From: Trichodelitschia bisporula
Lineage: Eukaryota
NCBI GenBank assembly: GCA_010356995.1
Contig: ML996706.1
Coordinates: forward strand, 625,789 to 676,687
Direction of reading: 5' to 3'
Length of the DNA: 50,899 nt
Shown in pieces: positions 7,262 through 49,320 of this stretch. The notes under the pieces are model-generated. The model was not told where the DNA came from. It saw only the letters and a list, made by a program, of their open reading frames with translations, and searched no databases. A program made the translations under genes and the position numbers. Within the stretch, counting starts at the first letter, position 1. The number at the start of each line of letters is the position of its first letter.

Positions 7262-7357
7262 GTGCTGATTGAGCCGATTCGTGCCGATTGTGTCGATTGT
7301 GCCGATTGTGCCGATTGTGCCGATTGTGCCGATTGTGCCGATTGTGCCGATTGTGTC
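7262..7357. repeat. 9-bp tandem repeat (GTGCCGATT), ~10 copies
   Basis: Eight near-perfect units at 7281-7352 plus degenerate flanking units. Confidence 0.95.
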
Positions 7358-7507
7358 AAAGTTCTTTGTTTGCTGAAAGCGCCCCGTGAGGCAACCCTTT
7401 GATATCTCGCTGGACGAGACCACTCCAAGGGCCACCCGAAAAAGGCATGTCCCCCTCTCTCCACAATTTGGCAGAGGCCATGCTGCCGGGGTGGTCATGA
7501 CTTTCGC

Positions 7508-7585
7508 GATGAGCTTTTGCGCTGAGCTTTTGCGCTGAGCCTTTGCGCTGAGCCTTTGCGCTGAGCTTTTGCGATGAGCTTGTGC
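7508..7585. repeat. 13-bp tandem repeat (GCTGAGCYTTTGC) x6
   Basis: Six consecutive units, ~240 bp upstream of the GAL10 ATG. Confidence 0.95.
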
Positions 7586-7819
7586 TCCCACTCCGGAGCT
7601 CTCCCTCAGCTCCAGCCATGGTTATGTAAGCCAGTTTGGCCCCGCGACTGGTGGCGCATGTCATCCTTGATGTGGCGCTGCTGTGCAATGGTGCCACCCG
7701 ACTTGAGTTGAACAGTTTGCATCTTCTCGCACACCGCTCAGCTTCCTCAGCTGTCGCCTCGACTCTCGTTCGTTTTGTCTCACACCTAGCCCTCCCAACT
7801 GACACCGCCCCTCTTCACC

Positions 7820-10887: not shown

Positions 10888-11433
10888 GTAGGTGTTAGGA
10901 TGGGGAAAAGCTTGCTGGCTTGTTTATGATGGGCGCGAGGTAGACGTGAAATGGTCTTTGAAGTGGTGAGAATCTGATGCTGAGTCCTTCCACCCCCTTT
11001 TTTCCGAGGGCATAGTCCGCCTGCTTGCGCATACCTTCGTTTGAAAGTCGAGCCCCCGGGAAGTTCTTACGATGAGGCCTGACACTCGCGACCATGGACA
11101 CTGTGCGTGAAACTTTGTTACTCCTATCTTCTCACATTGCTCTGCCGTGGCCTGCTCTCCGCCTTCACCTTCTTCTTATCCCCTTTTGACCTCGGTGAGT
11201 GCTCGGATTAGACTTAACGTCCTACCGATCATGACTTTTACTCGTTGTCCAGGACAGGTGAGGCGCGCGCCTCCCTAAACATTTGACACGAAGTGGCCGT
11301 ACTGCCTCCCATAGACTGATGTGGTTATAGAAGGAGCATTCTCATGTAAGCAAGCTACATGATGTAATGCGAGTATAATAGAAGGAAGGAGCAAAGGAGG
11401 ATCCTAGGTATCGTGTGTTCGAGTCTCGAGAGC

Positions 11434-11652
11434 CTCTTCCTCTCTTCCTCTCTTCCTCTCTTCCTCTCTTCCTCTCTTCCTCTCTTCCTCTCTTCCTCTC
11501 TTCCTCTCTTCCTCTCTTCCNNNNNNNNNNNNNNNNNNNNNNNNNNNNNNNNNNNNNNNNNNNNNCTCTTCCTCTCTTCCTCTCTTCCTCTCTTCCTCTC
11601 TTCCTCTCTTCCTCTCTTCCTCTCTTCCTCTCTTCCTCTCTTCCTCTCTTCC
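11434..11652. repeat. (CCTCTCTT)n microsatellite containing a 45-N assembly gap
   Basis: Perfect 8-bp units on both sides of Ns at 11521-11565; the true length is unknown. Confidence 0.97.
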
Positions 11653-11852
11653 CCTCTTTATCTTCGACTTCAATCTTCAATTTGCACAGATGCCATTGCC
11701 CGTATACGAGCCTTACTCCCATCATGCACTCCGGGTGCTTCACACCCATAAACCATCCACGCAGCCATCCAGCCTCATCCAGTCCGCTCTCAGCCTCGCC
11801 AACAACCTAAAAGTCAAGAAGGGTCCCTTTCCAACCACACCCCAATTCCCAA

Positions 11853-12927
11853 CTACGCGCCAGTCACACACTTGCACTTCTGATACGCCCCCCCACAAAC
11901 ATAGCAAAACTCATACTTGCATTGACACCTGCAGCACGTAAGTCAGCATCCCTCACTTCTACTCCCAGCCTCAAACGTACGTCATGTGATCGCACCCCTC
12001 CGTCTTCTCCACCATCTGCAAGCACTTGGCACATCTCTGCCAACCCCGCTTCTTGCCCAACTTGAGCACGTCCGCCAGGTCCGGGTCCTCGGGACAGCCG
12101 TCGCCTTTCGCATGGGCGGGCCGTTTGCAGCGCGGGCAGGTGCTGTGCCCGCACTTGCACTTCGCTTTGTGCTTGGTGATGCGGAGGGGGGGGATGAATT
12201 TGCTGCAGCGGGGGTTGGAGCAGTAGATTTTGTGAGGCGTGGTGTGTTCCAGTTCGGCGTCTTTGTAGGCTTGTACCTCCGAGGCGGAGAGTTGGGCTGA
12301 TATCATGGACAGCGGGATCGGCTTGCGGCAGCAGTGCGGCGGGAAGAGTGACTGATCGTTCACGGCGCGGAGGAAATGGTCTTTCAAGCAGCCCTTGCAG
12401 AACAGGTGAGCCCCGCAAGGCAAACGCGCAATATCAGCCCTCTTCGTCTCCGTCCCGCACACATTGCACTCCGGCTTCACCTTCGCGAACTGCCGCAGGG
12501 CGGCCGCTTGCTGCTGGACATACGAGGTGGAAGGATCGGTTTTATCTCCCCGCGGACGTGTCTCGGCCTGTGCCTGCACCGTAGCCTTGAACACATTCTC
12601 CGCCTGCGCCGCAGCATGCTTCACCGCGTGCTCCTGGCCCTCGCCACTCCCCGCCGCCATGAGCACGGCGAGGTGGTGATCAGCCTGGGCCTGGGCATCG
12701 GCACGCGTCATCTGCCACACGGCGTCCGCGTCGGTTTCAACGGCGTAGGCGATGCGGTGTGTGAGTTGTTCGTCGCGGATCAGGTCCATTTGCGTCTGGA
12801 TTTCGGTTTGGAGCGCGGTTTTGGCCGGGGCATCGCCGGGGCCTTTGCCGGCATTTTTCCATCTCCGCTTAAGATGGGCGAGCTTGGCGTCTAGCTGCTG
12901 GATGGTGGAGGGGGAGGGGGGAGCCAT
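11853..12927 (-). CDS. RBR (RING-IBR-RING) E3 ubiquitin ligase, Ariadne/IBR-domain-like
   Basis: Exons 12927-11981 and 11928-11853; intron 11980-11929 (GTACGT..GCTGAC..CAG). RING1 CNVC..PCGAHLFCKGC, SLFPPHCC; IBR YCSNPRCSKF..CKCGHSTCPRCK..H; RING2 WQRCAKC..EKTEGCDHMTCQCKYEFCYVCG. Confidence 0.92.
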
Positions 12928-13491
12928 GCTGCCGGTGTGCTTTGGGGGAGGATGGAAGGGTCGTGAGTGTGTATGGGAGATATGCAAAAATGCTTTCGGG
13001 CGGCGCGAGGCTGGCCGGAGAGCTAGGTTGACAAGAGTCGGGTTCGAAGCTCACGGGGAACTATATGTACGTCAGCTTTCGGTCTTCCAGAAGGTTGTGA
13101 GGGCACATCGTCACCCGCCTAGTCATCTATGCCACAGTACAGTCGGAACCAGAAACATCGCGGACATCCAGCCGTCCTCGCAGTGAGGCGGACGTGGGGT
13201 ACACCGACACACGCTCCCCACGTGACATAGATGGATATGATTTGACGAAGTGACGTGGACGGCTAGATGCGGCTCCAACGCTCCACGGCATATGGACGTC
13301 GTGCATGACTGTTCCAGTCTGCTGGCCACGTCAAAGAGGTGGCGGGAGGCCGCGACAGTCGGAAAGACAATGCCAGACGCCTAGATGTGGAGGATCGCTG
13401 CCAGGATCCCTAACGCAGCCTCTTGCAGGAACGCTGATCGAGAAGAAGCTGTAGCGTTCGACATTCCTACACGAGAAGGTCTGCTTCTGAC

Positions 13492-13897
13492 CTCTTGACA
13501 GTGAGTGCAGCATGGTGTCGAGGCACGGCTGGCGAGTCTCCGTCCAGTGCTCGTAGCCTAAACAATCTGTATGTCCGTTCTAATCAAAATTTCGAGTCGT
13601 TTCTTTACTGCTTCCACAGTATCTACCCGTAGCCATTGTGGAGGCAGTAGCGAAGCGACTCGAAATTTTGGTTAAAGCGGACATACACCAGTAAAGATGA
13701 CGACGGGACTCGGATATTTACCTGCCACAGTACCGGCTTCGATGATTGTCATCCAGGGCGCGTTGTTGGACGACCTGACGAACTTGAGCTACGTCAGGTC
13801 GTCCAGCAGCACCCTGGGTTACTCGTGCAATCCTCGAAGCCATCACCATGGAATGCACACGCATCACCCGTGCCTCGACACCATACGCTTGTTAGAG
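13492..13897 (+). ncRNA. Candidate highly structured non-coding RNA (three-arm junction; possible milRNA precursor)
   Basis: Stems: 13512-13528/13868-13884 (17 bp perfect); 13568-13620/13635-13687 (53 bp); 13762-13780/13792-13810 (19 bp), plus basal helices. Imperfect pairs are mostly G-U on the + strand. Expression not shown. Confidence 0.5.
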
Positions 13898-14352
13898 TGT
13901 GGCCTGGGAATAAAACTGGCGAAAACAAAGAGAGGAAACAGGCACGATTAGAAGTCCGGATTTGGGATTAATGTGGTTGGAATTGACTGGTTGGTAGCTT
14001 GACTGGACGTCCTAGGCAGGGTCTTCTCCTGCCAAGTCTGTTTACTAACCTATATATATCGGTTGCCTGACATCAACGGTCGAAGAGATCAACTCCAAAG
14101 GATTTCTCCCTTCACGAGTTCTTCACCCTGCCATATGGATGTGATGTCATTAGCTAGCTAGCAAGTGTATGTACCGTAAGGAGCGGCACCAGACTTTGCT
14201 TGAACTCACAGTAGAATGTACATACGGTGACACAACGTTATTTGGGAATGAAGGCGAGCAAAAACCACTACCAACTCCTCTCAAAACCTCCAAATTAACC
14301 CGAAGCACCTCATCACCATTCGAACCCCGCTCAAACGGTAGACTAAAACTCC

Positions 14353-14814
14353 ATGGCAACCACACAACCTCCCAACACTGCCATACCCTCCCCGCTCCCT
14401 TTCAAAACCTTCCTCATCAAGCCTTGCCCCGGACCCTACCTTAGCCCCTGGGCGAAGACGGACGTCGAGTCCGTCTCACCGCGATCAGTACCATACTCGA
14501 CACCAAAATCCTCGCAAAATCTCGAAAGTTATCTCAGGGCCGAGCGCAAGGCGTGGGACAATCTAGGCAAGTTCGGCAAGGGGCCGTCGGAGGCGGTGCA
14601 GAGCGTCGTTATGAAGTTGAAGGAAGCCGAGGGGGAGGAGAAGGTTGAGTGGTTGCTTGTCGGGGTTGAGGTTGAGTGAGGATGGGGGTGGGTGTGGGAG
14701 GGGGGGACGTTGGAGTGTACTGTTTTTCGGACTGCGGCGGGAGATGGCGGGCTGCTGGACGACGCTATGGAGCACGATATGCTGGATCTTTTTCGCGAAA
14801 GAGCGCGATTTTGA
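14353..14814 (+). pseudogene. Orphan paralog copy A, internal TGA at 14677-14679
   Basis: MATTQPP..FKTFLIKPCPGPYLSPW..AW..VEWLLVGVEVE*GWGWVWEGGTLECTVFRTAAGDGGLLDDAMEHDML; similarity to copy B continues in frame past the stop. Confidence 0.6.
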
Positions 14815-15220
14815 GCTCTAACTATCAGTTAGAGATTAGGGTGCTGGGAACTGCTTTCTGGATAGTGCTCCGCGGATGAGATACCATGGTTGATAGGAAA
14901 GATATCGCGGAGTTGTAGGTGGATCAGAGTTAGGATTTATCCCTTCACGAGTTCTTCACCTTACCATATGGATGTAATATCATTCGCCAGCCAGTAAGTC
15001 TGTATGAATCGTAGGGAACGGCGCCAGCCTTCACTTAAATCTCCTATGGTATGTTCATACGGTTACACAGCGTCATGCGGGAAAGAAAGGCAAGATAACA
15101 AAAGACAACTACCACCCGCCCCTTCCAAATACCTCGCTCACCGTCTCCAAGCCAACCCCAAAGCACCTCAAAAGCATCTCACCACCACCTCCAAACCCCC
15201 AAACCTCCCCCCAACCCGCA

Positions 15221-15808
15221 ATGGCAGCCTCGCACCCCCCGCACCCCGTCCCAAGCCGCCTCCTCCCCTGGCAAACCTTCACCATCCAGCCCATACCCGG
15301 ACCTTATAAAGTGCCCTGGAAACGAACGATCGTCAAGCGCCGCTAGCTACGCCCGCGCCCAAGCTTCGAGACACCCACCAAGCCAGCCTGGGCCAGGGAG
15401 GAATTAAAATGCGGGGTCGCTTAGTGCCGGGCGTGGGAGGGCGTGTGGCAGGCGGATACACTCAGCAGGGGTCCGTACATTGCGCTGGGCTTGGTGGTCA
15501 AAGAATGGAACAGGGCTGAGCGGGAGAGGTGGGCTGAGTGGGTGAGGAAGGCTAAGCGGGGGAGGAGGGTCAAGCGAGGGAAGCCGGTGAGGTGGTTTCT
15601 CGTTGAGGTTAAGTTTGAGAAGGGGGTTTATGGGCTTGTTGAGAAGGTGGAGTTTACTATTATACGGGCTACGGTTGGGGGTGGTGGGCCGCTGGACTTC
15701 GATATGGAGTACGGTTTGCTGCACGCAGATCGGAGCTGGAAAGAGAAGGAAAATACTCGTAAGGGGAATGAGGAGTTTTTGAATTCTCTTCAACGGGAGT
15801 ATGGATGA
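15221..15808 (+). pseudogene. Orphan paralog copy B, internal TAGs at 15344-15346 and 15422-15424
   Basis: MAASHPP..WQTFTIQPIPGPYKVPW..*..*CRAW..VRWFLVEVKFEKGVYGLVEKVEFTIIRATVGGGGPLDFDMEYGLL; 196 codons with no frameshift. Confidence 0.6.
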
Positions 15809-15840
15809 TTGCCAGCAAGAGTTGAGCAGATGACTCGAAA

Positions 15841-16021
15841 AGGGTATACTCGTGCTCAGGTCGCTGAGTTGGCTAGGCTTGCCGGCTTCAGGCCACCATG
15901 AATGAGTGCTAGCACGCGCACCGTAGATGTATCGAGAGGGCTATACTCATGTGCCAGCACGCGCACCGGAGATGTCTCGAGAGGGCTATAGTCGTGCACA
16001 GGTCGCTGAGTTGCTGGGCTT
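15841..16021. repeat. Compound direct repeats (two ~45-bp tandem units flanked by a ~40-bp direct repeat)
   Basis: GTGCYAGCACGCGCACCGKAGATGTMTCGAGAGGGCTATA occurs twice; TCGTGCWCAGGTCGCTGAGTTG occurs at both ends. Confidence 0.85.
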
Positions 16022-16145
16022 AAATCACCTTTTGTGATAGGGGTGGCTTTTCAAGCTGCCTGAGCAAAATTTGTATGGTTTAGCAAAGTCTCTGTATCTT
16101 CGCAAGCCAGCAAAACGAATCATCCATTACCCTGACACGTAATCT

Positions 16146-17507
16146 CTACTTCAGCTTCCAATCCTTGTACGACCACTTCTCCGTCGTCGTCCTCCTCGGC
16201 TTCTTCCGCTGCGTGATAGGCGCACGGCTCTCAATCTTCCCTCTCAGCAGCAAGCTCCTAAACCGATCCGTAAGCAGATTGCCCTCAGGCTTCAGCAGCC
16301 GAAGCGAGTCCTGCAACTCGTCCGCAAGCACCACCTCGAGCGGGCCCTCGGGAATCCTATTCTCATCAGCCATGTCATTCATTAGACGCGAAACCACTCA
16401 CGGAGCTTTCCCCAGCCGGCGCCGCCTCAGCGTCTCGCCCTCCTCTTCACTCTCACTCTCCACAACCGGCGCCTTGACTTTGGCCTTCTCCCTCTTATCA
16501 AGCTGCTTAACCAGCGCCCTCGCCTGCGCAACCTGCTGTTCACGCTTCTTCGCCTTCTCTTCGTGCGTACGACGCCGCTCCTCCTCCTTCCTCCGACGGA
16601 TGCGATTCCGCTCCGCCTGCGTCTTGCGCTGCGGCCGCTTGACCTTGAGATCGACGTCGGCGTCGCTGAGCCCGTCCCACTCCGTCTCCCACTCGCTCTC
16701 CCACTCGCTTTCCATCTTCTTGTCTTCCTCCTCTGCCTGCGCGGCCTCGATGCGCGCGATGCGCTCCGCTTCGAGACGTTCCTCTTCCAGCCGCTTCACT
16801 TCCTCGTCCACCGCCTTGGTGCCTTCCTTCTCCACCAGCGCGGCCCAGTCCGCGAACGCAGGGTTATAACTCTTCCCCGGGTTCGGCGTCTGGACCGCAG
16901 CCACAGGCCGGCCGGACTTCGTCATAGCCAGCGGCGCACGGCGTATCGTCTCCGGCTCGCGCGCCTTACGCGGCGGGTCGAGGAACGTATACGCGCTTTG
17001 CACCGGTTGGGCATCCCACGGGTCATACGTAGCGCTCACATCCGTCTTCAGCACCTCCGCCTTCTTCGCTTCACCCCCGTAGGCAATTTTCCTTAGCCGG
17101 TCCATCTCCCGTGCGGACACGGCGCGCCGCTTCTTGTCTGGCAGGACGCCATCGGTGACGGTGGCGGGGCGCTTACGCCCGTCGAGCGGGGGGACGGCGC
17201 TGCGCTCGGCGAGAATCTCATCGGCTTTGAGGGGCTTGTGGCTTTTGGCGTAGGCACGGGCGGTGGGCACAGAGGGGGCAACATCGATGGTGAAGAGGTC
17301 TTCTGAGGCCTTTTCGGCGACAACGCCGCTGGGAATAGGTTAGGAGGTGTGGGCTTAGTGGGGGTTGTGGAGAGCAAACCCGGTGATGACTTCGTCGCGG
17401 ACGGTCGAAAGGCCGGATTCTACCTGCGTCAAGTCGACGTTTTTGCGCCAGGCCTTTTTGCCTTTGCGTGAGGGCTGGGCATGTTGCTGAGGCGGGAGAG
17501 TGGCCAT
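16146..17507 (-). CDS. NOP53: Ribosome biogenesis protein Nop53 (GLTSCR2 family)
   Basis: Exons 17507-17380, 17328-16402, 16356-16146. Motifs QPSRKGKKAWRKNVD, DLFTID, GKSYNPAFADW, KTQAERNR, LADELQDSLRLLKPEGNLLTDRFRSL, EKWSYKDW. Confidence 0.96.
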
Positions 17508-17771
17508 GGTGATGGTGTTGATGGTGGTGGTGAGTTTGGAGGTTTGGAGTTGAAAAGTGTCGAGGCGAGAAAAATCAATTGGGCGGCGGAAGTTGCCGAG
17601 CCGCCGTCGGCGGTCGGCCAGTTGGCGGAGCTGCCACTCAACACCAACGCCTCCTGATCTCCCAACATCTTGCACGGCCAACTTTCGCAACGTCCAACGA
17701 CTCTGTCAACTCTCCATCCACCGTCTTTCTATCCCCAATCACCGCCACTACCACAGACAACAATCGCAGCC

Positions 17772-18497
<726 letters not shown>

Positions 18498-18681
18498 TCC
18501 CCCGCCCGCTTGGGCCGCTGCATCAACACACGAGCAAGGCGTTCCGGAAACAGGGGTGGGTGTAGAACTATCAATGACATTACTTTCTGGCACCGCACAC
18601 ATCACAACCTTGACCCCCGTCTCTCCCACCACTCCCTCCCCCCTTCCCCCCCCGAAACCTTCCCCCCCCGAAACCTTCCCC

Positions 18682-19521
18682 NNNNNNNNNNNNNNNNNNN
18701 NNNNNNNNNNNNNNNNNNNNNNNNNNNNNNNNNNNNNNNNNNNNNNNNNNNNNNNNNNNNNNNNNNNNNNNNNNNNNNNNNNNNNNNNNNNNNNNNNNNN
18801 NNNNNNNNNNNNNNNNNNNNNNNNNNNNNNNNNNNNNNNNNNNNNNNNNNNNNNNNNNNNNNNNNNNNNNNNNNNNNNNNNNNNNNNNNNNNNNNNNNNN
18901 NNNNNNNNNNNNNNNNNNNNNNNNNNNNNNNNNNNNNNNNNNNNNNNNNNNNNNNNNNNNNNNNNNNNNNNNNNNNNNNNNNNNNNNNNNNNNNNNNNNN
19001 NNNNNNNNNNNNNNNNNNNNNNNNNNNNNNNNNNNNNNNNNNNNNNNNNNNNNNNNNNNNNNNNNNNNNNNNNNNNNNNNNNNNNNNNNNNNNNNNNNNN
19101 NNNNNNNNNNNNNNNNNNNNNNNNNNNNNNNNNNNNNNNNNNNNNNNNNNNNNNNNNNNNNNNNNNNNNNNNNNNNNNNNNNNNNNNNNNNNNNNNNNNN
19201 NNNNNNNNNNNNNNNNNNNNNNNNNNNNNNNNNNNNNNNNNNNNNNNNNNNNNNNNNNNNNNNNNNNNNNNNNNNNNNNNNNNNNNNNNNNNNNNNNNNN
19301 NNNNNNNNNNNNNNNNNNNNNNNNNNNNNNNNNNNNNNNNNNNNNNNNNNNNNNNNNNNNNNNNNNNNNNNNNNNNNNNNNNNNNNNNNNNNNNNNNNNN
19401 NNNNNNNNNNNNNNNNNNNNNNNNNNNNNNNNNNNNNNNNNNNNNNNNNNNNNNNNNNNNNNNNNNNNNNNNNNNNNNNNNNNNNNNNNNNNNNNNNNNN
19501 NNNNNNNNNNNNNNNNNNNNN
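18682..19521. other. Assembly gap (840 N)
   Basis: Run of N; probably hides the 3' half of the GPCR gene. Confidence 0.99.
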
Positions 19522-32500: not shown

Positions 32501-35383
32501 ATTTACAAACTGCTCCGCTGCGTCGAATAGGTCAGCGGCCAGCTTCGACTCGTTCGTAGCAATGCCGCGTAGGCCGTTGCGAACGAAGAGCTGTAGGTCC
32601 GATATGCTAGATCCCATGAGGCCCATCAAGTCGAGTGCAAGGTTCTTCGCCGGTACCAGGCGCTTGTCGTCCTCGACGATGACGATCATCTGTCCCAGCA
32701 AGCTGCGTAGCAGCAGCTCCGCCGCGGGCCAGTCAGGCGACCCGAGCACGTTAATGAAGTCCTCGGTGAAGATATCGAGCAGGTTGCGGTAGGGTTGGTC
32801 CCCAGATTTTGTAGATGTCAACGCCCGCTGCACAAGGTAGCTAACGACATACGAGGCGTTTTTAAGAGCGCTGTCGTGCAGCGGGTCAGCCACCCTACGG
32901 AGCTCCTTCACAGCGGCGTCAAGGTCGTCGGGGACGTCTTCGAGGCCAATAATGTCGGGTACACCATGCACGGCGTTTCCGGGTATACCGCGCACGGCGA
33001 TCTCATCGGAATCGTCTTCGGAATCGTCTTCCGCGAGAGCGCGCACGGGTTTGCGGCGCTGGGGGCCGCTTCGAGAGCCGCTCGTCTGCACCAGGCGCAT
33101 CAGCAGCGCTGAAACGAGCTGGATCGGCCGGCAGTCAGCGAGCTTGAACTGGCGGGCGCTCTGTCGCGTTACCGGGAGACGCTCCAGCGACGTCAAAATC
33201 TCGTCAAAAATGAACGGCCGCTGGTCCAGGTGGCGGGCAAAAATGGCTGCCAGGACGTCCATGGCGGTGCGACGCAGGGATTCGAAGCGCTGGATGCCGA
33301 GTGCAGACTCCTTTTCGGCGTGGGCATTTTCGACAAAGATGAGGCGCATCGCGAGAAACTCCATTTTGGTGACAGCACTGTCGGCGACGTCGACCTCCGA
33401 GACTAGAGTCTCGAGTAAACGGAACACGCGGCCGCACATATGCAGCAGGCTGGAGAGCGGCTTCTTCTGGCTGGCATAAATTTTGAAGGCCTCTGCATTG
33501 GTGCGCGCCTCGACGACTGGCACGACGCTGTCCACAACATGCTCCAGCGCGCGCATGATGCCGCCGAGAATGTCCTCCGAGTACAGCTGCTTCTCCTCGC
33601 GTCCGGCCGTCAGGATGCGGAGCAAGATCTTCGTCGCTTGAAGCCCACTCTCGGCGTGCCGCAGGCGGACCACCCAATCCGCAATGTTCTCGTCGTTGGA
33701 TGCTTCGTCGACGATGAGGTTGATACACTCCACCGAAGCCACTGTGTTATCGCAAAGTTTCTGCAGCCGCATCACGTCTTCGACAGGGAGGCGATAGAAC
33801 GATTTGGTTGAAACGGCATTACGCACGGCGTTTTCGATGCGAACCTGCAGCGCTTCGGCTAGCAGCGGCGGGTCGTCCTCGTCACCCAGGCCCTGAATGA
33901 AGTACCTGTTATCAATGTCTTGCTCAACATGGTCCTCCGCATGGAAGGTCTCTTGTAAGATCCGATTGAGCGCGTGAACGGCAGCATCAGCCTTTTCGCG
34001 CTGGTCTACAGTCAGCTCCAGCACCTCGTGGCGCTCGGAGTCGCGCTTGCGTTTGCGGAGCGCCTCTGTCGCCACCCTTGCGTCGATGTCGGGGAATTCT
34101 TGGTACCCGGAGCGGTTCACCGCGGTGGGAACAACAACTTTCGGGGCCATGCTGACACGGATAGTGGCATTTTCTTCCTCCGCGGCGGCATTTAGCGCGC
34201 GGGTTTCGGACATATCCCGCGAACTGTGAGCTACATGGGGCTGAGTTGTGGGTTGTGTCCTAGGTTGCGTCCCGGACTGTATTACGGAGGGCGTCATGGA
34301 CTGTACCTGCGCGGGCTTTATATACACGGTTGGCTTGACCGGTATGGCTGGCTCATCGTGTGCCGTTGACTGTGCCGTTGACCGGACCTGGACGATTGGT
34401 TGAACTTGGACGGTTGGTTGAACTTGGACGGTTGACTGAACCTGGACGGTTGGCTGAACTTGAACTACCGGTCGAGCCTGGATGACCGGCTGGACTGAGG
34501 CAGGCTGTACCGTCGGTCGGGCTGGCGATTGAGCGGGAATCGATGTACGCGGCTGAGCGGGCACCACGACTTGGGGCTTCCGAGGCGTCACTTGGATGGT
34601 CTCCAGAATCACTGGCTGCGGTGTTTCCTCAATCTTGGGGCGCCGCTTCGCCTTTGCCTGAACGGTATCCCGCAGTGATACGTCCTGAGACGATCCCTTA
34701 TCGCGCGGCGTCTGCGTCGTCTGCAACGTCTGCGATAGCGACGTCACGCGCCTACCCTGCGGTATCACAACCTGCGCCAACTGCGATGTCTTCCGCTGCG
34801 GCTCCGGAGCGCGCGGCTTCGGCGGTGCCACCGCAGGATAGTGGTGCTCAACATGGGCCTTGTCGAAGACAAGCTTGCTGAAAGGGCTGAGAGCTAGTGG
34901 CTCGCGGGTATTGCTGCTGGCCCGCCGGTTCAGCGACTGGGCAGGCAGGCCCGCGAACTTGTACTCGGTGAGGGCATCGGGGTGCAGGAGCCCGCGGAGC
35001 TTGCGGAGCGACTGTTCGAGCAGCTGAGATGTGCGATTTGGATTGCTTGCTTCGGCGTCGAGCGTGTCTAGTGCTTTACGAGAGAGGCGCCGCTCCACGT
35101 TGGTGCATTTATCGTTGGGATATACAACCGGAGATGCGGAAGGCCCAGCGAAGGGAAAGGGGAGAATGTCTACAGGTCAGCGTTGGACACACACGAGAGA
35201 GACGCGATGAGGTTAGAGCATACCAGCCGCAAATGGGACGATGGATGACAAAGGGGTGAACTGCAGAGCATTGTCCACGGTCGGCGCGCGCAACCGCTTG
35301 TCATGAGCCTGTGAATCGGACGAGACGCGCGAGCCGTTTGTGCCGTTTGGCACGAGAACGTGAGGATGGTGACTGCGATCCAT
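29518..35383 (-). CDS. SCC2: Cohesin loader Scc2/Mis4/NIPBL
   Basis: Exons 35383-35224, 35169-32265, 32218-29518. Motifs PTVDNALQFTPLSS, FIFDEILTSLERLPVTRQSARQFKL, IQLVSALLMRLVQ, DWPAAELLL, DSSPLVRDSAL, VRKRA, RQGLVHPKECGPALVALETS. Confidence 0.96.
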
Positions 35384-37937: not shown

Positions 37938-38206
37938 ATTAAGGTGGATGACATTGGTGAGGAGCTCTGGCAGCATCCGGACACGCGATGAAGGAGCTGA
38001 GGGCAGAGAACGCGCGGAAGCACTGCACAGTGAATGAGATGCGGCACATGGCATGGCGACCGACTGGCGTACCATAGTAGGGCGGCTGGTGGGGAGAGCG
38101 GAGCAGTATCTACGGCCCAATATGACAGCTTCAAGTTTCGACATTGTCATCACAAGCACATCCTCTTCAACCTCCCGCACCAGGCGAAAGCATCAATGAG
38201 GAAAAG

Positions 38207-38334
38207 AAAGGTGTTCAAAAATTCCCAGCCGATCCGAAGACCAACTGGAGAGGTCAGGAATGTAGTTTTCAACTAGCAATAACACGGGCTCAGACGAATC
38301 TTCACTGCCACGCGTAAAGCCCGAGCACTTGGAT
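38207..38334 (-). ncRNA. U4: U4 spliceosomal snRNA
   Basis: Minus strand AUCCAAGUGCUCGGG..UACGC..CAGUGAAGAUUCGUCUGAG..GUGUUAUUGCUAGUUGAAAACUA.. matches the recalled yeast/fission yeast U4 layout (stem II, kink-turn 5' stem-loop, stem I UGCUAGUU). It has a 3' stem-loop with a C(UUCG)G loop and Sm site AAUUUUUG. Ends approximate. Confidence 0.93.
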
Positions 38335-38599: not shown

Positions 38600-38689
38600 G
38601 CGGCTTTAGCTCAGTTGGGAGAGCGTCAGACTGAAGTGTACTTCGGTCCAGGCATCTGAAGGTCACCCGTTCGATCCGGGTAAGCCGCA
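38600..38689 (+). tRNA. tRNA-Phe(GAA) with a 17-nt intron (38637-38653)
   Basis: Acceptor GCGGCTT/AAGCCGC, D arm GCTC/GAGC, anticodon stem TCAGA/TCTGA with GAA at 38633-38635, T arm ACCCG-TTCGATC-CGGGT, followed by T tracts. Confidence 0.97.
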
Positions 38690-39532: not shown

Positions 39533-41595
39533 CTATTCAAAGACGATAGCCTCGAGCTCACCCCGCTGCTTCTGTTTGATCCACCCCCGAATCAGGGCCA
39601 GGCGGTATATGAAGCAAAAGCCCACGCGGCGGAAACGGGGCTCCCCCGGGACAATACGCTCCACCAGCAGCCCCAGGCTCGCAACATCTCGATCCTCCTC
39701 AGGCACACTTTCGTCAGAATCGTCCCGCGCCCACGCCAGCGGGAAAATGTTCCAATCGCGCCCCTCGACCTCACTCAACGGCCGGTACATGCCGCCCGTA
39801 TCCCAGGTGCAGAAGATCCCGTCCTCCGCATCCCACCCCTCCATGCACCACCCCAGCCTTGGATGGGGATACCCAGCGCGCGTCTCCGTCGGCTTGGGGG
39901 TCACCTTGATGAGACACACGCGCAGTTTCGCCACTGCGAAGCCCACCTCGCCGTACGGATTCAGGCCCTTGATCGGGACGTCGATGTCGTCAATCTCAAT
40001 GAGATCGCCCCACGATCCCATATTCGTCGTCCCTATGGGCCCATTGTCAACAGATGCCCAGGACCACGATGGGCCCCGCGGTTCGGGTGGATGGCTACTG
40101 CGCCCGCCAATACCTTGCCACCCCAGCTCTTCGACGAAGTTGTCCCGCCATAGCCCGGCGACGTACTCGCCCTTCACCAACCCGGCCGCCTTAGCCGCCT
40201 GCGCCAGCCCCGAGAGCGCGGGGAGTTTGTCGGACGGGTTCGTCAGCTTGCGCTCCGAGTACTCAGATAGTATGGTCTGCCAGCGCGTCGAGCCGCGCGG
40301 CGCACCTTGGAAGTACGGGCCGTGGCGCTCTTCGAGAGAGTACTCGGTCCCCGTCTGGACCCAGCCATCTTCGGTCCGGAAATGCGCCAGGCACTCGTAG
40401 CACGCTTGCGAGGTGGCGAAGTGCAGCTTGCGCATCGGGAGGTAGCGTTCCTGCAGCGTCCAGGCGCGCACCGAGATCGGCTCGTCGGCCATCTTGGCGT
40501 GGTCGGTGTTGAATGCTGCCAGGCCCTGGGGGACGTAGAAGGCGTACACGGTGCCGGAGACGCCGCTGATGGTGGTCGACAGGGGAATGTTCCGGCGCTC
40601 GCCGCGCGAACCCAGAAAGCCTTCGGTGTCGGAGGCGCCACGTGAGGCAATAATCGTCAGGTATGACTTCGCGTACACGCCGGCCATGCGCGCGGCCTCG
40701 TACTCCCAGTCCGCACGGTCGTCCTGGATGATGCACAGGCTGTCGATCCACAGGTATCTCAAGCCCAGCGTGCGGGTGAGGCGAACAGCGTCCTTGAACG
40801 TCTGCGGCATGGCCGATACTGATATGGCCTTTTTGCGGTCCTGAAGGGTGTCCTTGGTGGTTAGGAGTTCGCGTGTGGGCCCCCAGCAGTGGCTCAGGGC
40901 GACATATGGTGCGGAGCCACCGCCCGGTTCGAGCAGTTTGACGATGCCGTCCGGGCCGTCCAGGTCGAGAATACGAGTGGGGAGGTCATACTGCAGCGGC
41001 GGATGATTGTGGCCGTCACATTCCTTGAGCCATGTTTGAAAGCGGGCGAGTACAGTGGGGTGCATCGGGTCGGGATACACGATACGCCCGCTGAAGCGGG
41101 ATCCGAGGGGTGAGTCTGAAGGTCAGCTGTGGGAATAGACTAGCCTGCAGTTCGGCAAGAGCACAACGCACCATCTTCCACGCAGTATCCCGCCGCGGCG
41201 ATGAGGTACACGTTATGACTATCCCGGGCGGGACTCAACACCATGAAGCCGTCGGCGTCCTCGCGCTTGCACATCCACAGCTGGTAGACTGGCGGGCCGT
41301 CGTTGTCGCGCGCGACGTATCCGGAATCTTTGTTTCCCTCCTCGATCAACGCCTCCACACGGACGATGCCTCTGTCGATCAGCTGGCATATCGGGCAGGC
41401 GGCGGCTGCCGTGCGAAGGGCGGCGAGTGAGGGGTGGTGAGGGACGCCGAGCACGCGGGGCTCTTCGGAGGAGCCTGACGGCATATAGGGAACGAGATCA
41501 TGGTCGTCGAGGGGACGGTGGAAGCTGGGCAGCCATTTGGGGAAGTCGGGGAGGTTGAAGAAGTCAATATTTTTGCAGATGGAGCACAGAGCCAT
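39533..41595 (-). CDS. HET-domain (heterokaryon incompatibility-type) protein
   Basis: Exons 41595-41172 and 41115-39533 (56-nt intron). Motifs LPTRILD, YVALSHCWG, PQTFKDAV, YLWIDSLCIIQDD..DW, RAWTLQER, YSERKLT..SDKLPALSGLA, PSWSWAS. Confidence 0.95.
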
Positions 41596-41633: not shown

Positions 41634-41799
41634 AAGCCCAAGCTCAAGCTCAAGCTCAAGCTTCAAGCTCCAGAAACCTCAGCTGAATGGCGGGGTAGAT
41701 ATGTCCTGTACCCCTGCTGCCTCAGCTGCAATGTGCTTTTGGATATCGCTGGACGCCTAATGCCACAGGACGCCTAATGCCACAGGACGCCTAATGCCA
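41634..41799. repeat. Short tandem repeats upstream of the HET gene: (AAGCTC)~6 at 41634-41670 and 17-bp GGACGCCTAATGCCACA x2.9 at 41751-41799
   Basis: Read directly from the sequence. Confidence 0.9.
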
Positions 41800-41988
41800 T
41801 CAAACGCATAGATGCCGAAAATTAGGAGCTGAGATTCGTTCCAGATCTACAACGTGCATTAGCCTCACTAAAACCATGCGCTCGCCATGCAGTTCGCCCA
41901 ACGCGGCAGCCCCATATGTATCTGCCCCTGCCCTCCCGCCATGCAGCCATGCAGCCATGCATATTACCCCCACCGTGAACCCAAATAT

Positions 41989-48647: not shown

Positions 48648-49320
48648 TCGTGGGAGACCAATGCCGGGCCTTGACCTTATTGGCTCCCCGCGATCTTCCC
48701 CCGCGGCTGCTGCTACGTCACGCCAGCCTTCCCGCACCCCGCCGTGCCTTAGGCAGACGGCAGCGCGATCTGCTCAAGAGTCTGGCGGCTCGCTCTTCAG
48801 ATAGATCTTGGTGGAAGTAACTTGTTCATGCCCGCACCATACCCATCGTGACTTCCACACTTTTGCACGCCCCTGACATCGAGTCTGCCAGCGCCCCCCA
48901 GGGATCCTGCGGAGGCAAGAGAGCCCTGGGTGCTGACCCGGCAACTGGCAACAGCTCCCAGGAGGGAAGCTGGGCCAGGACCGTGACAGTGGCGGGCTTC
49001 GTCGCTGGCGTCTCCATGACTAGCAGACGGATTGGAGAGCAGGGTTAGTTACACAAAAACAGCTATTTCAAACTCACGATCCCTACTTGTGTCAGGAGCG
49101 TGCAAAAGTGTGGAAGTCACGATGGGTATGGTGCAGGCATGAACAAGTTACTTCCACAAAGATCTATCTGAAGAGCGAGCCGCCAGACTCGTGAGCAGAT
49201 CGCGCTGCCGTCTGCCTAAGGCACAGCGGGGTGCGGGAAGGCTGGCGTGACGTGGCAGCAGCCGCGGGGGAAGATCGCGGGGAGCCAATGAGGTTAAGGC
49301 CCGGCATTGGTCTCCCACGA
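48648..49320. repeat. Long inverted repeat: 231-bp arms (48648-48878 / 49090-49320) around a 211-bp spacer
   Basis: Arms compared base by base: 223/231 identical, no indels. Confidence 0.97.

Follow-up and report, generated by a model that had tools for sequence, protein, structure and literature searches.

A transcribed, single-copy foldback with two arms in Trichodelitschia bisporula is a candidate fungal hairpin-RNA locus

MicroRNA-like RNAs (milRNAs) of fungi are unreliably annotated, and those loci that are well supported consist of short single hairpins. The precursors described in Penicillium measure 43-89 nt (PMC4425646), and the primary transcript of Neurospora milR-1 is given as about 170 nt in a study that also reports poly(A) reads from, and Pol II binding at, some Neurospora milR loci (PMC3547838). 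According to a 2022 re-analysis (PMC9757828), conservation of fungal mi/milRNA hairpins is mostly limited to close relatives (section 10), a milRNA annotation should exclude overlap with structural RNA, transposons and coding sequence (sections 9 and 11), and it is still to be clearly demonstrated whether long hairpin RNAs act naturally in fungi. In flies, some hairpin RNAs (hpRNAs) are described as having arisen one gene away from their target (PMC10317233).

Here we describe an intergenic element of about 400 nt (13492-13897) within a window of 50,899 nucleotides, the whole stretch of DNA that was analyzed, which corresponds to positions 625789-676687 of one contig (C20) in a genome assembly of 25.8 Mb and 44 contigs. 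The host, Trichodelitschia bisporula, is a Dothideomycete, and the Nop53 protein encoded in the window has at most 51% identity to its next relatives among the matches listed. Our literature searches returned nothing that joins the species name with "small RNA", and no title on a two-armed fungal precursor of this type. The reading that we tentatively favor, at a probability of roughly 45%, is that the element specifies a lineage-specific hairpin RNA, transcribed by Pol II from the plus strand and cut by Dicer into small silencing RNAs. It is placed between a minus-strand gene for an RBR-type (RING/IBR) E3 ligase and a plus-strand pair of orphan paralogs, and the only open reading frame that overlaps it has 84 codons and no Pfam match. 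The main exon of the RBR gene (11971-12927, minus strand, start at 12927) is transcribed and matches PF01485 with an E value of 7e-8; its protein found one match among 4461 candidates, which is its own record. Its closest fetched paralogs, at 42-47% identity, are two genes of a cluster of three IBR-domain genes within 20 kb on another contig (C23:303886-323667). Farther to the right, the window carries a HET-domain (heterokaryon incompatibility) gene at 39533-41065 on the minus strand (PF06985, E 5e-31).

The two-armed structure is real. Both arms are enclosed by a closing stem, P1, in which 13512-13528 pairs with 13868-13884; read base by base on the plus strand, 17 of its 17 positions are Watson-Crick pairs, and its mean pair probability is 0.97 on the plus and 1.0 on the minus strand. 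Arm 1 opens with a basal helix, P2 (13533-13544/13702-13712), which forms in the fold as 11 Watson-Crick pairs with U13539 bulged, and continues into a long stem (13568-13620/13635-13687) of 53 positions with a 14-nt apex. This stem consists of 45 Watson-Crick pairs, six G-U pairs and two mismatches (C-A at 13580/13675 and U-C at 13604/13651), and would offer room for two duplexes of Dicer size. Arm 2 (13735-13841) is made of three helices and an 11-nt loop: a basal helix (13735-13749/13827-13841) with one U-C mismatch, an inner stem (13762-13780/13792-13810) with 17 Watson-Crick and two G-U pairs in 19 positions, and, joining these two parts in the fold, an 8-bp helix (13751-13758/13812-13819) that is absent from the preliminary description of this locus, which had been made from the sequence without database searches. 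For the rest, that description proved accurate on the perfect closing stem, on the composition of the 53-bp stem, on the basal helix of arm 2 (13 Watson-Crick pairs and one U-C in the 14 positions of 13735-13748/13828-13841), on the 19-bp stem with its two G-U pairs, and on the count of eight G-U pairs among ten deviations in the main stems. It had placed most of the deviations outside a CpA context, and none of the eight G-U sites lies in one. Two of its helices need qualification: P2 does not pair as the ungapped block first described, and the closing stem extends outward only weakly, with seven mismatches in 12 positions when read without gaps and only a part retained in the centroid.

When both strands were folded and compared with shuffled sequences, as had been proposed, each lay 13-15 standard deviations beyond its shuffles. 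The plus strand reaches -214.8 kcal/mol (z -15.0) and the minus strand -210.8 kcal/mol (z -13.5), with 0 of 100 shuffles as good in either case, and the Y shape is common to both: of the 114 core positions, folded within their 929-nt transcribed surroundings, 111 exceed a pairing probability of 0.5 on the plus strand and 103 on the minus strand. The signal is local. Among 200-nt segments across 12,801-16,400, each compared with 12 shuffles, 13501-13700 gives a z of about -10 and 13701-13900 a z of -4 to -5, and all remaining segments are weaker than -3.6. A strand-neutral scan of 891,041 bases from 80 other fungal loci, which are partly redundant, found seven stems with a score of at least 16, all with spacers of at least 72 nt, and none that matches the score of 36 reached by arm 1. 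Such a fold-back is stable enough to hold a small-RNA duplex.

The element is present in a single copy. In blastn searches of the genome, with one candidate scored per search, it retrieved only itself and its own arms; its closing 17-mer, with at most two mismatches, found eight genome matches, two of them its own arms, versus eight for the reversed control. In contrast, a comparable search with a 231-bp inverted pair in the window gave 79 matches. The many dispersed copies that the preliminary description had named as evidence for a MITE are absent, as is a TIR family. Its statement that the element has no target-site duplication stands for duplications of at least 3 nt at eight candidate boundaries; a TA..TA pair does flank arm 1 when this is trimmed to 13572-13683, as is expected of any stem that contains a TA step. 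The closing 17-mer was not found in viral contigs, nor was an ortholog of the element found in plasmids. As to other repeats, the two copies of the 231-bp sequence (48648-49320) stand head to head, 97% complementary and 211 nt apart, and many of its matches genome-wide lie close to contig ends; no strong CpA bias is seen among its copies. Another contig (C14) holds near-perfect long inverted repeats of 324 bp with one mismatch (L032:2328-3233) and 147 bp with two mismatches (L020:1073-1500), which are possible natural sources of double-stranded RNA or possible recent rearrangements. Short tandem repeats occur at 7272-7370 (9-nt unit), 7490-7593 (13 nt), 11436-11650 (8 nt, with an N gap inside), 34377-34484 (18 nt) and 41751-41810 (17 nt).

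To compare the locus with other fungi, a 16-sequence Nop53 alignment was used to fetch the best 80 of 128 metagenome loci, and in these 80 distant loci the element has no match (best blastn E value 0.77; none with nhmmer). Arc1 follows Nop53 in three of the 80 (L044, L045 and L047, the first two nearly identical) and GalE in two. The ends of Nop53 and Arc1 are about 240 and 290 nt apart in the syntenic loci versus 5,267 nt in the window, and the short gap shows no unusual folding. A stretch of about 5.2 kb in which the RBR gene is followed by the element and the orphans is hence missing between the same flanking genes in three of three syntenic loci, so that these features are either special to this lineage or were lost in the others. 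Distant orthologs would be expected to be missing, given that fungal mi/milRNA hairpins are seldom conserved beyond close relatives. The order Rab6 - Nop53 - Arc1 itself is common to the window and to L044, L045 and L047 despite about 47% Nop53 identity, and is continued by GalE and a SUN-domain gene in L044 and L045; Rab6 adjoins Nop53 divergently in many of the 80 loci.

Three observations lead us to favor the plus strand, by roughly three to one: an excess of G-U pairs, the greater stability of arm 1, and an AATAAA that closely follows the element. G-U pairs outnumber A-C pairs by 8:1 (two-sided p 0.039), or by 7:1 (p 0.070) without the loop-terminal pair, compared with 6:9 in the seven best stems of the 80 fungal loci and 3:3 in the 231-bp repeat pair. 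Arm 1 folds at -78.8 kcal/mol on the plus strand versus -63.2 kcal/mol on the minus strand, which makes the plus strand stabler by 15.6 kcal/mol. AATAAA is a polyadenylation signal motif, and the candidate signal at 13909-13914 (plus strand, 11 nt after 13897) is one of three on the plus strand of the 50,899 bases, and the local probability of such a motif within 50 nt is 1-2.4%. Against the preference, arm 2 (-67.0 versus -65.4 kcal/mol) and the element as a whole are nearly equal on both strands, and the earlier claim that selection acts on a plus-strand RNA thus retains modest support, the whole-element difference being only 4 kcal/mol.

The G-U sites also share a context. Seven of the eight read as C>T at CpT (p 1.5e-4; 15 of the 58 cytosines of the rebuilt stems are CpT), and the same seven are equally readable as A>G after A (p 1.1e-3), both p values being uncorrected for the number of contexts tried; at seven of the eight, the U lies in the 5' arm. 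To judge by its letters, this pattern smells of a mutation bias, and such a bias is central to the strongest competing explanation, namely that the element is neutral foldback DNA, a MITE-like remnant or the product of template-switch inversions, which owes its transcription solely to its position between two promoters. The excess of G-U pairs would then reflect strand-biased C>T mutation, either RIP-like or associated with transcription. We regard this as somewhat unlikely, and the evidence divides. The CpT reading of the G-U sites fits it, as does the surrounding stretch, young and rich in repeats, absent from all the syntenic loci, and also containing a microsatellite, tandem duplicates and genes with in-frame stops. 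Against the customary thresholds, the dinucleotide ratios of the element lean to RIP (TpA/ApT 0.90 and (CpA+TpG)/(ApC+GpT) 0.98, versus 0.62 and 1.21 for the window), noisy as they are on 406 nt, and the genome has three cytosine-methyltransferase loci of untyped subfamily. The TA..TA flanks of trimmed arm 1 point the same way, and when folded as DNA the minus strand is slightly better than the plus strand (-114.8 versus -111.7). Yet a neutral foldback would need several separate inversions nested at one place, it exists as one copy only, with a closing 17-mer that matches no more often than its reversed control, and CpT is not the usual bias in this genome, since among 16 distinct copies of the 231-bp repeat CpT accounts for only two of the 24 variable C/T or G/A columns, versus 29 of 140 sites. 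A RIP-mutated repeat fits poorly, the longest arm of 53 bp being far below the required duplication size; RIP is described as acting on duplications above a few hundred bp (10.1101/344036). Transcription-linked C>T change on the non-template strand would produce the same G-U excess without selection and yet would imply transcription of the plus strand. Were the element neutral, it would serve as a caution that a one-strand G-U excess can arise from mutation bias.

The element is transcribed. Four sequence runs contain the stretch and were compared over 11950-17550: X1 and X2 are unspliced (DNA), and X3 and X4, which come from one sample, are judged to be RNA because they skip introns. The RNA contigs are unstranded and merge overlapping transcripts, and their depth is one mean per contig. 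One contig each in X3 and X4 covers 13119-14047 without a break and without other letters; the X3 contig extends through a plus-strand intron to 14662, and that of X4 leads from the RBR exons across the element as far as 14047. The plus-strand intron (GT-AG, 14167-14214), in the 5' leader of orphan gene A, is joined in X3 only. By comparison, the interval 14755-16063 has a mean depth of at most 8.4 in X3 and is mostly missing in X4, the shallower run, and that the element is nevertheless unbroken in X4 suggests more than background. An assembly artefact is rejected, since across the element neither a deviating letter nor a gap or joint appears in the two DNA and two RNA runs, with the proviso that the window may itself derive from the DNA runs. 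To the right lies TATATATAT (14051-14059), a candidate promoter of the downstream orphan gene whose TATATA occurs at three places in the window and which, having a self-complementary core, could also fire leftwards.

From that TATA element the minus strand might be read as a long 5' leader of the RBR mRNA that carries the Y structure, so that translation of the ligase would wait for cleavage of the leader or for use of a shorter start. The sole spliced evidence on the left is a minus-strand intron in the RBR 5' leader (13061-13118), of the non-canonical GC-AG type, whose joint is present in both RNA runs and absent from X1 and X2, and from which a minus-strand transcript must reach past 13119. 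The X4 contig that joins the RBR exons with the element ends, at 14047, beside the TATA element (14051). The same Y forms on the minus strand (z -13.5), and 15 AUGs precede the RBR start on the spliced leader. We nonetheless consider this explanation unlikely. On the minus strand, A-C mismatches replace the G-U pairs of arm 1, at the cost of 15.6 kcal/mol, the AATAAA stands on the plus strand, and unstranded contigs merge overlapping transcripts. Moreover, the eight regions around the other IBR-domain matches of the genome contain no comparable stem, no similar leader and no similar sequence. If true, a structured E3-ligase mRNA leader of 1 kb would be likewise unusual.

Returning to the hairpin-RNA gene that we favor, Pol II would transcribe the plus strand, probably from a promoter region shared divergently with the RBR gene, and the transcript would end near the AATAAA at 13909. 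The RNA would fold into a three-way junction from which two double-stranded arms project; Dicer would cut arm 1, whose 53 positions have room for two duplexes, and would release one duplex from arm 2 (the 19-bp stem plus the 8-bp helix), and the small RNAs would be loaded on Argonaute and silence their targets. It is the strand and ends of this RNA, its polymerase, its cutting by Dicer, its loading and its targets that we infer. The reading is supported by the five nested helices, the single copy, the unbroken RNA cover, the G-U excess, the AATAAA, and two Dicer_dimer loci in the genome. It is weakened by the unstranded RNA contigs, which join the element to the minus-strand RBR transcript; by the G-U excess being borderline and possibly due to strand-biased mutation rather than selection; and by the lack of any target above chance together with described fungal precursors that are shorter and single. 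The earlier interpretation is partly supported, in that neither dispersed copies nor an Rfam family came to light, the locus is transcribed and the genome has two Dicer loci; the polycistronic milRNA precursor that it suggested is still a hypothesis, and a natural long-hairpin RNA would fit the 53-bp stem at least equally well.

The search for antisense targets of the arms, proposed in the preliminary description, was run and gave nothing beyond reversed controls except one local lead of 13 nt. When 44 arm 21-mers were compared with 63 sequences that total 260,254 bases, or about 1% of the genome, no target rose above the reversed control: the best match, in L038, is discounted as circular because that locus had been fetched with the same 17-mer, and the next-best scores 5.0 versus 4.5 for the reversed control. 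The local lead lies in orphan gene A (14353-14817, plus strand), which has a 108-codon reading frame, an in-frame TGA at 14677-14679 and then a frame homologous to its tandem paralog, orphan gene B (15221-15811, plus strand). The two share 29% identity over 171 columns, and their frames are collinear across the stops (one TGA in A and two TAG in B). Gene A belongs to no Pfam family, and gene B, with its stops read through as X, matches none of 61 candidates. Their leaders and first splice donors (14099-14166 and 14932-14999) are 87% identical, far above the coding frames. Either the two are young pseudogenes, or they are candidates for sexual-stage A-to-I correction of stops, a process described in Sordariomycetes and one Pezizomycete (PMC11156358, PMC10776026); the RNA contigs show no changed letters at the in-frame stops.

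The site itself (14751-14763, plus strand) lies within the distal homologous frame of gene A and is complementary to the 3' strand of arm 2 at 13798-13810. It is the longest exact match in the window, its duplex is predicted at -32 kcal/mol, and both wobble G's of that strand face C's in the site; the reversed control reaches 12 nt, and the E value of 0.026 within the 5.2-kb stretch is post hoc. By complementarity the site is thus a weak lead to a cis target of arm 2. One might imagine a young genetic-conflict module of RBR ligase, hairpin RNA and the two orphan paralogs, a fungal counterpart of the Drosophila hpRNA-driver systems, in which a small RNA from the 3' strand of arm 2 would silence gene A through this site and the stops might be read only after sexual-stage editing, and we judge such a module very improbable.

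At gathering score, Rfam matched only U4 and one tRNA in the window and nothing at the element (the U4 snRNA gene at 38204-38334 on the minus strand and the tRNA gene at 38600-38689 on the plus strand are divergent, with 265 nt between them). Two local Rfam searches gave 10 and nine sub-threshold matches to miRNA hairpins, the best at 29.7 bits versus a gathering score of 90, which we read as generic hairpin hits. Motif tests of 13119-14166, which used the standard patterns for the B box, the C box, SRP helix 8 and the hammerhead core, agree with the earlier statement that no SRP or hammerhead motif is present. SRP RNA is rejected, the helix-8 motif being absent here and the SRP RNA of this genome (RF01502, 115.5 bits) lying on another contig (C7), as are a C/D box RNA (no C box), a hammerhead or retrozyme (no core pattern on either strand and no Rfam match), and a Pol III milRNA gene of the milR-1 to -4 type (both strands lack a T5 run and a B-box consensus). 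The Sm-like word AATTTTG is present on both strands, though it falls within the arm-1 stem. In snR30, motifs m1 and m2 are described in the 3' hairpin before the ACA box (PMC7601244); m2 is absent from 13119-14166, by which we reject an snR30/U17 H/ACA RNA, and one m1-like 9-mer with a mismatch, at 13461, is outside the structure. The U17 model (RF00045) matched neither the genome nor the controls and is therefore uninformative.

A diverged housekeeping RNA, above all the variable arm of a telomerase RNA, is the least probable identity that we weighed. Telomerase RNA was not located in this genome, where its Rfam model (RF02462) has no match, and since the controls have none either, the genome-wide search is uninformative; locally, too, there is no match. 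A 7-nt CCCTAAC occurs at 13408 on the plus strand, but over 11,001-19,000 there are only 7-nt words and no 8-nt permuted form of the common fungal telomere repeat, which may not be that of this organism, and four tandem units of telomere repeats were not found in the assembly. Pezizomycotina telomerase RNAs are described as long and as having variable regions that defy alignment from one class to another, and the N. crassa template as 9 nt (PMC3592445). The transcribed space here is about 1 kb versus 2049 nt for the N. crassa RNA, and against any housekeeping RNA stand the SRP RNA on its other contig, the absent m2 and the lineage-specific nature of the stretch.

How, then, does the element compare with known systems? 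MITEs are short, non-coding, bounded by inverted repeats and strongly self-complementary, and the element resembles them and other foldback elements in all four respects; unlike MITEs, it is single-copy, belongs to no TIR family and has no flanking duplication of at least 3 nt. With the telomerase RNAs of Pezizomycotina, long Pol II non-coding RNAs with unalignable variable arms, it shares a three-way junction, but that junction is described as having a short P6 and a 4-bp P6.1 (PMC3592445), whereas the element has stems of 53 and 19 bp and no full template nearby. Like the Drosophila hpRNAs (Nmy/Tmy, hp58), it is an inverted repeat of young, lineage-specific character whose long stem is nearly perfect, and it stands beside young paralogs. 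The arms of fly hpRNAs, however, are copies of target genes, whereas those of the element have no blastn match elsewhere in the genome and a best local match of 13 nt, and the fly systems belong to a different kingdom.

The closest likeness is to Neurospora milR-1 to -10 and to milR-1 and milR-21 of Penicillium chrysogenum, which are likewise intergenic, single-copy stem-loops of Dicer length in genomes with two Dicers. The element is free of overlap with Rfam families, repeat copies and Pfam-matching coding sequence, and may overlap a 5' leader. The structure is seen in one lineage only, which limits its reach; within that reach, a transcribed two-armed substrate that exists in one copy, has a 53-bp stem and was noticed from the sequence alone offers a clean test case for a natural long hairpin RNA. 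Unlike milR-1 to -4, it has no T run of at least five and no B box in 13119-14166, and unlike the fungal milRNA precursors of 43-89 nt and the 170-nt pri-milR-1, it extends over about 400 nt, with two arms and a closing stem. Through this difference in size and its two arms, the element is a candidate for a new variety among fungal hairpin-RNA loci.
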